Shown here piece by piece: positions 18,276 to 19,747 of a DNA stretch of 33,659 nt. Source of the stretch: an uncultured Candidatus Bathyarchaeia archaeon (GTDB lineage: Archaea > Thermoproteota > Bathyarchaeia > EX4484-135 > B24-G1). The position numbers and the translations under genes are program-made. Under the pieces are notes generated by a model, which made no database searches, was not told the origin of the DNA, and was given only the letters and a program-made list of their open reading frames with translations. Numbering within the stretch: the stretch's first letter is position 1; every line of letters begins with the position of its first letter. The DNA lies in the NCBI GenBank assembly GCA_964555905.1, contig CAZKUI010000004.1:1-33659 (forward strand). Reading direction: 5' to 3'.

Positions 18276-18539
18276 GTGGTGTTGCGGTTGCTGTTCCTCA
18301 GCCTGCTGAAGGCTTACGGGAGGGGAGACCACACTGGGTTGTTAAAGAGGATATGGGAGGTTCAACCGCCCTCGGACGTGAAGGTCATCCAAGTCTACTA
18401 CCTGATAGGTTCGTATGATGGGGCGGTAATATTCGACGCACCAGATTTCAGGGCTGCGAAGGCGTTCCTCACCCGCATCGCCGCTCAGGGCGTCTATAGG
18501 ATAGAGACGATGGGCGCCATACCAGCCGAGGAGCTTTAG
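18276..18539 (+). CDS. GYD-domain (ferredoxin-like) small protein
   Basis: YYLIGSYDGAVIFDAPD...IETMGAIPAEE. Confidence 0.75.
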   Translation: MVLRLLFLSLLKAYGRGDHTGLLKRIWEVQPPSDVKVIQVYYLIGSYDGAVIFDAPDFRAAKAFLTRIAAQGVYRIETMGAIPAEEL

Positions 18540-18557: not shown

Positions 18558-18565
18558 TTTAAATG
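18558..18565 (+). promoter_or_regulatory. TATA box of the C/D sRNA
   Basis: TTTAAATG lies about 24 nt upstream of box C. Confidence 0.6.
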
Positions 18566-18584: not shown

Positions 18585-18654
18585 CTCGGTGATGATAAGG
18601 GAGTCTACGGAGCCCTCTGGGCTGTGAAGTGAACCGACGGGCGGGCTGATGGAG
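18585..18654 (+). ncRNA. Box C/D 2'-O-methylation guide sRNA (predicted targets 23S C1920 and 16S C1402, E. coli numbering)
   Basis: C box GTGATGA 18589-18595, D' CGGA 18608-18611, GCCC/GGGC stem, C' GTGAAGT 18624-18630, D CTGA 18646-18649. Guides TAAGGGAGTC and CGACGGGCGG are antisense to conserved rRNA motifs recalled from memory. Confidence 0.8.
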
Positions 18655-18742
18655 AATAAACCCGCCCCCACAAAACGTAAGATGGTGTTTGCACCTCCCC
18701 CTAAACCCTTTTAATACAGGACTCCACTCTAGTTTAAATGAT

Positions 18743-19747
18743 ATGAGAAGGCGCCGAGGGTTTTTACTGACGTTCCTGCTCCTAACTGCGTATTTAACGA
18801 GTTCTATCCCTATGGCTATGGGCGACAGCGGGGAGATTGTTGTTAGCTTTGAGGCAGCCCTCCAAGGCATAGAGTGGTCTGACGGGAATATGCGTGTCTC
18901 CCTTTGGGTTGAGGAGGTCATGGGGTCTTATAGGTTGTGGTTTAAGGTCTATGCCTTTAAGAATCTGGAGGCGGTCACGATCAGACTATTAAACTGCAGT
19001 GGGCAACCTCCAGCGGGCGTCGCGAGGAACCCGTATAGGACGGGGAGGATTGCCCAGAACTCCGTGGATGTGAAGTTCTGGTTTCCCCTCTCTAAGAGCG
19101 AGTTTCCCGTCGTCGTGCAGATAGAGTACCGCGTTTCGTGGGTTTCTTTCCTCGGTCCGTTCACCGTCTACGCAACCTTGATACTCGGCGCCTTCTCAGC
19201 GTTCTACCAAGGTGCCAAAAAGTATGGGGAGAGGGTGATTAAGGGGGTGGCACCCCTAATCGCCCCCCTCTACTTCATGATAATGGGTGAGGAGGTCCTC
19301 GAGCACCCCACGAGAAAGGACATCTACTGGCTGATCGAGAAGGAGCGCGTCTGCACAGCCTCCGACATACGCGACCTACTAGGCATATCCATGACCGCGG
19401 CGTCTTGGCACCTATGGATGCTGGAGTCACGCGGCTTCATCCAATCAACTAGGGTTGTAGGCCGCATAGTCTACCACTCCCCGAAGATTAGCGGGGATGC
19501 CGCTGCATCCCTATACCTCCTCAGGAGCCCCACTAGGAGGAAGCTGGTGAAATATCTACTCCAGAACGGCCCCGCGCACATCCGTGGCATAGCTAGGGCC
19601 CTCTCCCTCTCCACGGAGACGGTGAAGAGGAACGCGGACATACTCATGAGGTATGGGGTGCTTGAGGAGCGGAGGATGCAGGACCAACGCCTCCTACTAG
19701 TGAACAAGGAATTTGTAGATAGGCTGATGCGGCTTGGGGAGGCATAA
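18743..19747 (+). CDS. Membrane-anchored transcriptional regulator with two ArsR-like wHTH domains
   Basis: Signal-like N-terminus, beta-rich domain, TM segment, then VLEHPTRKDIY...ASWHLWMLE and LRSPTRRKLV...IARALSLSTETV. Start probably ATG 18743. Confidence 0.75.
   Translation: MRRRRGFLLTFLLLTAYLTSSIPMAMGDSGEIVVSFEAALQGIEWSDGNMRVSLWVEEVMGSYRLWFKVYAFKNLEAVTIRLLNCSGQPPAGVARNPYRTGRIAQNSVDVKFWFPLSKSEFPVVVQIEYRVSWVSFLGPFTVYATLILGAFSAFYQGAKKYGERVIKGVAPLIAPLYFMIMGEEVLEHPTRKDIYWLIEKERVCTASDIRDLLGISMTAASWHLWMLESRGFIQSTRVVGRIVYHSPKISGDAAASLYLLRSPTRRKLVKYLLQNGPAHIRGIARALSLSTETVKRNADILMRYGVLEERRMQDQRLLLVNKEFVDRLMRLGEA

Follow-up and report, generated by a model that had tools for sequence, protein, structure and literature searches.

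The 33,659-nt stretch of DNA from an uncultured Candidatus Bathyarchaeia archaeon analysed here (the window) carries at 18585–18654, on its plus strand, what is almost certainly a genuine archaeal dual-guide box C/D sRNA gene. As judged from its sequence, the sRNA appears to be independently transcribed. Its D guide very likely targets C1402 of 16S rRNA, in helix h44 within the P-site/decoding region, and its D′ guide probably targets C1920 of 23S rRNA, on the 3′ strand of H69. The best explanation as a whole, which we hold to be reasonably probable, is an sRNA whose D guide would direct Cm1402, whose D′ guide would most likely direct Cm1920, and whose combination of the two arose from guide turnover. 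The decisive evidence that the gene is real is conservation across families: we found five homologues, three of them in genomes of a family (g3) that is sister to the host's within the same order, and two in genomes of a further family (g34). The features of the gene, with target positions in E. coli numbering, are as follows.

18559–18565, plus strand: TATA-like A/T-rich box TTTAAAT, a putative promoter element that ends 20 nt upstream of the 5′ stem.
18585–18588, plus strand: CTCG, the 5′ half of the terminal stem, whose partner is 18650–18654.
18589–18595, plus strand: C box GTGATGA, which lines up with the C boxes of the Rfam families sR23, sR2 and sR3.
18596–18607, plus strand: D′ guide TAAGGGAGTCTA, 12 nt; 18596–18605 face 23S G1918–A1927, with G18603 opposite C1920.
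18608–18611, plus strand: D′ box, variant CGGA, identical in all five homologues.
18612–18622, plus strand: hairpin GCCC-TCT-GGGC, which separates the D′ box from the C′ box and is seen in the fold; the g34 homologues show GCC...GGC.
18624–18630, plus strand: C′ box, variant GTGAAGT; in the g34 homologues this position is occupied by CTGAAGA.
18631–18645, plus strand: D spacer, 15 nt; 18635–18644 (CGACGGGCGG) face 16S C1399–G1408, with G18641 opposite C1402.
18646–18649, plus strand: D box CTGA, read from the sequence.
18650–18654, plus strand: TGGAG, the 3′ half of the terminal stem, read from the sequence and the homologues.

Inspection of the plus strand gives the order CTCG-GTGATGA-TAAGGGAGTCTA-CGGA-GCCCTCTGGGC-T-GTGAAGT-GAACCGACGGGCGGG-CTGA-TGGAG for 18585–18654. 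The canonical C and D boxes, the CGGA D′ box, the GTGAAGT C′ box and a TATA box had all been located by the initial annotation of the window, and we find each of them, at every position, where it had been placed. The same annotation had read a 3-nt bulge between the internal boxes; these nucleotides, TCT, are instead the loop of the GCCC/GGGC hairpin. The hairpin folds at −9.9 kcal/mol (z −2.3), and both internal boxes, CGGA (D′) and GTGAAGT (C′), keep their GA dinucleotides. The fold of the whole sRNA is not better than that of shuffled sequences (z +0.43), as is usual for the box C/D sRNA class. The terminal stem is short, with 3 bp (CTC/GAG). The D′ spacer is 12 nt long and the D spacer 15 nt, against a canonical 12; a second GTGAA at 18629–18633 overlaps the C′ box, and with it as C′ box the D spacer would be 10 nt. 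Among the homologues the D spacer spans 15–17 nt in g34 and 12 nt in g3.

The sRNA sits between a gene for a GYD-domain protein (18276–18539) and a gene for an HTH regulator. The likely in-frame ATG of the latter is at 18743 on the same strand, 89 nt downstream of the sRNA, and this gene has an A/T box of its own at 18709–18716; the regulator is probably leaderless from that ATG. In the C-terminal half of the HTH reading frame (18689–19747) there are two regions of winged-helix type, HTH_20 (residues 204–251) and HTH_24 (280–325), and the first ~200 residues have no Pfam match. Two minus-strand ORFs that run over the sRNA region likewise have no Pfam match. In a read-through transcript CCCGCCC, which lies about 15 nt beyond the D box, could pair with the D-guide segment GGGCGGG (window 18639–18666); this fold is not better than shuffles (z −0.39), and we saw no T-rich terminator after the sRNA.

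A search of 301 genomes of the class for the D guide followed by a D box returned 8 genomes, compared with 2 matches for the reversed control. Six of the eight places are box C/D sRNAs: the host's own and those of G004, G006, G008, G043 and G078. The other two (L022 and L023) lack boxes and were rejected. All six sRNAs have the D guide and the unusual CGGA D′ box in common, and the g34 copies additionally have the GCC...GGC hairpin and the CTGAAGA C′ box. Read from the sequences, the terminal stems vary yet stay complementary (CTC/GAG, TGGC/GCCA and GGGG/CCCC), and an A/T-rich box lies 20–21 nt upstream in the homologues of both g3 and g34. The D′ guides differ between the window sRNA, g3 and g34, whereas the D guide is kept, which makes the gene a clear illustration of how guides evolve as modules: three families combine the same conserved guide half with three different partners. 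The homologous genes lie in three unrelated neighbourhoods, namely GYD/HTH in the window, ERCC4/ABC ATPase, and PNPOx/arginase-family, and no synteny is common to the three lineages. The differing neighbourhoods point to relocation of the sRNA gene between lineages, and mobility of such genes has been described (PMC6009581). A DNA search in 41 relatives gave only a 23-nt look-alike in G014, which has no C box and was rejected. Taken together, the boxes and the homologues in two other families bear out the initial reading of the element as a dual-guide box C/D sRNA.

Within the 1.13-Mb host genome, two places fit the strict box architecture, compared with none in the reversed genome and a mean of 0.4 over 10 shuffles, a count that is in itself modest support for a real gene. 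A relaxed genome-wide scan for sRNAs was mostly noise, with 57 candidates having a 9-mer rRNA match versus 42 when the guides were reversed, and was set aside. An Infernal-type comparison, which had been proposed as a check, gave no Rfam match at gathering level anywhere in the window; the best score was that of sR23 (RF01138; 24.1 bits against a gathering score of 45), followed by sR2 (RF01139; 18.6/42) and sR3 (RF01133; 18.1/41). These low-score alignments to three C/D families are full-length with the boxes in register (E 4e-4 for sR23). The host MAG (101 contigs, 88% complete) encodes fibrillarin (PF01269, 327.8 bits) and Nop5 (PF01798, 258.7 bits), adjacent to each other on contig C19, together with two L7Ae-family proteins (PF01248, 106.2 and 79.2 bits).

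Of the 24 sequencing runs listed, 22 contain the stretch or a part of it; these 22 derive from hydrothermal-vent and marine-sediment metagenomes, and none of them is an RNA run. A metagenome scan with the architecture pattern, in which the D′ guide was left free, found only two copies identical to the window and two identical to G078, and the D′ guide was seen only in the host organism and its identical metagenome copies. DNA runs X6, X7 and X8 cover the sRNA, and the sole difference listed inside it is G18619T, at full depth in run X8. This change disrupts just the innermost base pair of the hairpin, so that 3 bp remain (GCC/GGC), as in g34, with boxes and guides intact. For the one clearly divergent strain (2%, run X9) no contig covers 18546–18800, and a 93%-identical contig in run X7 starts at 18637.

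The host MAG has no 16S or 23S rRNA gene, nor has any of the 8 same-order genomes, and the pairings were therefore tested on rRNAs from other orders of the class. The initial annotation had called for alignment of both guides to the organism's own rRNAs; on the relatives' rRNAs the outcome is clear-cut for the D guide, with 10 Watson-Crick pairs, and less so for the D′ guide, with 9 Watson-Crick pairs and one G·U. The D guide CGACGGGCGG (18635–18644) is perfectly antisense to CCGCCCGTCG, forming 10 contiguous Watson-Crick pairs in all six full-length 16S sequences, and its N+5 residue is C1402 in 4/4 alignments to E. coli rrs, exactly the h44 site first proposed for it. C18635 stands opposite G1408, which is typical of the class and is A in E. 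coli. The outermost pair thus uses a residue particular to the relatives, so the D guide appears fitted to the class. The word expected in the unassembled host 16S is CCGCCCGUC(G) or CCGCCCGUCG. The 16S genes of two of the relatives (G017 and G010) are about 1730 nt long, and the 23S gene of G010, at 3843 nt, has an insertion directly 5′ of TTAAGGTAGCC, within the H69 3′-strand target; both the insertion and the long 16S genes are probably due to rRNA introns.

Equivalents of Cm1402 are reported in P. abyssi, N. equitans and eukaryotes. E. coli Cm1402 has been aligned with P. abyssi Cm1369, yeast Cm1639, human Cm1703 and Arabidopsis Cm1645, the last of which is guided by AtU43 (PMC11542601, Tables 1–2). 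In N. equitans, Cm1402 was detected by RiboMeth-seq and is given there without an sRNA candidate (PMC5389701). A further survey lists 16S C1389, which equals C1402 since the paper's A1395 is A1408, as the target of Pca sR25 and Tte sR35, with an asterisk denoting a mismatch at the site (PMC4644070). The core of our D guide is absent from all 489 sRNAs listed in the supplement of that survey. For an uncultured archaeal lineage of hydrothermal habitats, the window sRNA would supply an explicit guide to the universally conserved Cm1402 with Watson-Crick pairs throughout; as described in PMC5389701, N. equitans lacks a guide candidate for this residue, and the candidate in I. hospitalis is weak. 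We consider this perfectly matched, family-conserved guide to be the most useful feature of the sRNA.

The D′ guide TAAGGGAGTC (18596–18605) is antisense to GACTCTCTTA on the 3′ strand of H69, with 9 Watson-Crick pairs and one G·U in a contiguous duplex, in all four usable 23S sequences of relatives; the fifth 23S, that of G010, was left unscored because of the insertion at its target site. The N+5 residue is C1920 in 4/4 alignments to E. coli rrl. The proposed H69 site is thus upheld in its register, and its pairing is qualified by the G·U that every relative shows at U1923. This G·U is central, separating Watson-Crick runs of 5 and 4 pairs, and the D′ guide accordingly falls short of the published rule of 9 contiguous Watson-Crick pairs (PMC6009581) on every relative's 23S, its best pure Watson-Crick run anywhere being 8. 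For this reason our confidence in C1920 is moderate unless the host has C1923. The word expected in the host 23S, which is not assembled, is GACUC(U/C)CUUA. U1923 pairs with G1907 in the H69 stem, and a C1923 in the host would be expected to be neutral there and to make the guide duplex perfect.

We then asked how readily such matches occur. Among 1500 random 12-mers from the host's own genome, compared with one relative's 16S and 23S, 2.0% reached 10 contiguous Watson-Crick pairs including position 5, and 7.7% did so with one G·U; both reversed D′ controls reached at least 9 pairs. No host tRNA fits the D′ guide better than 8/12. One 12/12 antisense match lies on the host's own contig C48 (1567–1578), inside overlapping ORFs, where ~0.13 such matches are expected by chance. 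The survey noted above predicts 23S C2186 as a target in 4/7 species, by Mma sR104, Sac sR20, Mka sR47 and Iho sR201, and equates its A2178 with E. coli A1912 (PMC4644070), so that C2186 is C1920. Cm1920 itself has been verified in N. equitans by mass spectrometry and RiboMeth-seq, with Neq sR20 as its guide (PMC5389701). Our assignment of the D′ guide to C1920 as probable is based on a prior that about half of all guides target rRNA, on the 2–8% chance rate, and on a match that falls exactly on a recurrent archaeal site.

A pattern for H69 guides matched 57 places in 52 of the 301 genomes, and its reversed control also gave many matches. We inspected all 57 contexts and found only those of the window and G025 to be convincing sRNAs; the candidates L051, L074 and L087 were rejected because they have no boxes, and L072 is ambiguous. 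The G025 element (C59:3689–3903, minus strand), from another family, is an unrelated sRNA whose D′ guide also has C1920 as its N+5 residue, with an A opposite U1923. Its D guide has no convincing rRNA match (best 9/12). Additionally, another host guide, on contig C84, fits 23S H69 on its 5′ strand, a short way upstream of the C1920 site. The minus strand of C84 (122–206) holds a box C/D sRNA of textbook form, with guides that fit the 16S of relatives near 517 and 762; directly after it come a further C′-like box, the H69 5′-strand guide and a D box, and the whole may be a tandem pair or a three-guide RNA. The G025 sRNA and the C84 guide further support a cluster of H69 methylation in this group.

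The combination of a 16S and a 23S target in one sRNA is probable from the pairings, but it has precedents and shows no evident sign of selection. Each of the two sites is already known as a target in archaea, and C1920 guidance as well as 16S+23S dual guides are already in print. Most dual guides do target sites within 100 nt of each other, in keeping with the initial annotation, by which archaeal dual guides usually act on nearby sites in one rRNA: the published figures are 237 of 327 rRNA-targeting sRNAs (PMC6009581) and about half of 489 (PMC4644070). Other 16S+23S dual guides include Neq sR11 (16S U766 and 23S G2174), Pca sR16 and Iho sR52 (PMC4644070). In the homologues, the D′ guide of g34 fits 23S near E. 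coli position 1354, in domain III (10 Watson-Crick pairs on one same-family 23S), and for that of g3 we found no rRNA match. Because the homologues keep the C1402 guide but have other D′ guides, the D′ half appears to be interchangeable.

Mechanistically, the sRNA can be pictured after the archaeal sRNP model of L7Ae, a Nop5 dimer, two fibrillarins and the N+5 rule, as summarised in PMC7994747. By analogy, L7Ae would bind the C/D kink-turn and the C′/D′ motif, in which CGGA with GTGAAGT is closed by the small hairpin, and the Nop5 dimer would bring two copies of fibrillarin. Each guide would pair with pre-rRNA, and 2′-O-methylation would fall on the residue that faces guide nucleotide 5, counted upstream from the box. 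The D guide would in this way yield Cm1402 in 16S h44, and the D′ guide, most likely, Cm1920 in 23S H69; the two methylations would be independent events. The 16S+23S combination would be a by-product of modular guide turnover, joining a conserved C1402 half to an exchangeable D′ half, rather than an adaptation to the 70S interface.

Three other readings were weighed against this one. That the element is no functional gene at all, being chance boxes, a decayed sRNA or an L7Ae-binding regulatory part upstream of the HTH gene, is highly improbable: chance alone would give the strict architecture ~0.4 times per genome and the element lies 89 nt ahead of the likely ATG at 18743 on the same strand, but the guide, the D′ box variant, an A/T box upstream and compensatory stems are common to homologues in three families, a separate A/T box precedes the HTH gene, and the sequence is unchanged in two identical metagenome copies and three runs except for the one hairpin SNP. 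More weight is due to a real sRNA that guides Cm1402 and has a D′ guide that is directed to some other RNA or is an orphan, so that the H69 match would be fortuitous or non-productive. The central G·U in all four relatives, the shortfall against the nine-pair rule and the chance rate of 7.7% per guide would fit such an orphan, as would the different D′ guides of the homologues, one of them (g3) without any rRNA match, and the perfect antisense match on C48. Orphan guides are also common in the published collections, where 163 of 489 sRNAs are without rRNA complementarity (PMC4644070) and 56% of guides are assigned to rRNA (PMC6009581). Against it, the N+5 residue falls exactly on a C that is targeted in four published species and in N. 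equitans, and the same 10-nt guide core occurs in Iho sR201; a C1923 in the host would be a neutral change that perfects the duplex. The tRNAs, at 8/12 at best, offer no better target, and the C48 match sits inside overlapping ORFs and is within chance expectation (~0.13 expected). On balance we regard an orphan D′ guide as unlikely, and far from negligible.

It is very unlikely, in our estimation, that the C1402 half and the H69 C1920 guide were joined by selection because their pairing helps ribosome maturation, coupling modification or folding at bridge B2a, with one RNA serving for RsmI- and TlyA-type enzymes. The initial annotation had pointed this way, inferring one sRNA in place of two protein enzymes at sites, near B2a, that are close only in the 70S ribosome. 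The targets do belong to elements that are opposite each other once the ribosome is assembled, a point made for h45 and H69 in PMC5389701, and Neq sR20 has a similar pairing of a site in the 16S 3′ domain with Cm1920, so that such a pairing has arisen at least twice. A selective meaning is not supported, however: the closest homologues join the C1402 guide to the domain III site near 1354 (g34) or to an unassigned guide (g3), the C1920 guide of G025 has an unrelated guide as its partner in the sRNA, and published guides that span both subunits (Neq sR11, Pca sR16 and Iho sR52) combine unrelated sites. Moreover, sRNPs act on pre-rRNA before subunit joining. TlyA makes Cm1920, and its 16S site is C1409, not C1402. 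No RsmI or TlyA equivalog scored above cut-off in the 88%-complete MAG, which agrees with the proposal that one sRNA stands in place of two enzymes; when domains are compared, an RNA guide does take the place of protein enzymes, but this applies to archaeal and eukaryotic rRNA methylation generally and is not special to this sRNA. If selection had in fact joined the two guides, one sRNP might hold the pre-16S 3′ minor domain and pre-23S domain IV of the same transcript, ordered release could act as an RNA-based checkpoint for the future bridge B2a, and the independent pairing of h45 with Cm1920 in Neq sR20 would be a convergence on the same logic. Our preferred reading remains an sRNA that guides Cm1402, most likely also Cm1920, and that came by this pair through turnover of its D′ half.

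Several known systems share parts of this design. Neq sR20 likewise combines two guides in a box C/D sRNA, one directed to the 3′ part of 16S and one to H69 C1920, and its authors remarked that the two target helices meet across the subunit interface (PMC5389701). It differs in that its 16S site is Gm1530 near h45 rather than C1402, and in that its H69 guide is the D guide and fits a different H69 sequence; we see no sign of common descent. For the C1402 half, Iho sR11 has a guide that differs from our D guide at 2/12 positions, is followed by CTGA and has the same N+5 register, and it has been proposed for Cm1402 (PMC5389701, PMC4644070). There, however, the C1402 guide is the D′ guide, one position implies a G·U, and the other guide is directed to 16S A1223; methylation at C1402 was <50% in the I. 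hospitalis study (PMC5389701). For the H69 half, the D′ guide of Iho sR201 begins with the same ten nucleotides, TAAGGGAGTC, and is assigned to 23S C2186, that is, C1920 (PMC4644070). Unlike the window sRNA, Iho sR201 has degenerate boxes (ATGAGGA and GAGA), and its D guide is directed to 23S C2260 with a mismatch, so that both of its targets are in 23S.

The Pyrobaculum sR25 family, with Pca sR25 and Tte sR35, has a D guide over the same h44 stretch with a single core difference (PMC6009581, Table S1; PMC4644070), and all six Pyrobaculum members carry the one-mismatch guide (PMC6009581, Table S1). The differing position is the N+5 nucleotide itself, A in place of G, and the prediction is flagged C1389*; the D′ guide of the family is directed to 16S C1349, making it a classic within-100-nt double guide, and is unrelated to the window D′ guide. 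The box variants of the window sRNA are not isolated, as CGGA together with GTGAAGA-type C′ boxes is common among the published sRNA sequences of M. kandleri. Beyond the archaea, eukaryotic U43-type snoRNAs (AtU43, with yeast Cm1639 and human Cm1703 as the corresponding sites) and bacterial RsmI act on the same universally conserved residue (PMC11542601). The eukaryotic snoRNAs differ from the window sRNA in usually being single-guide and nucleolar, and RsmI and TlyA in being stand-alone proteins.
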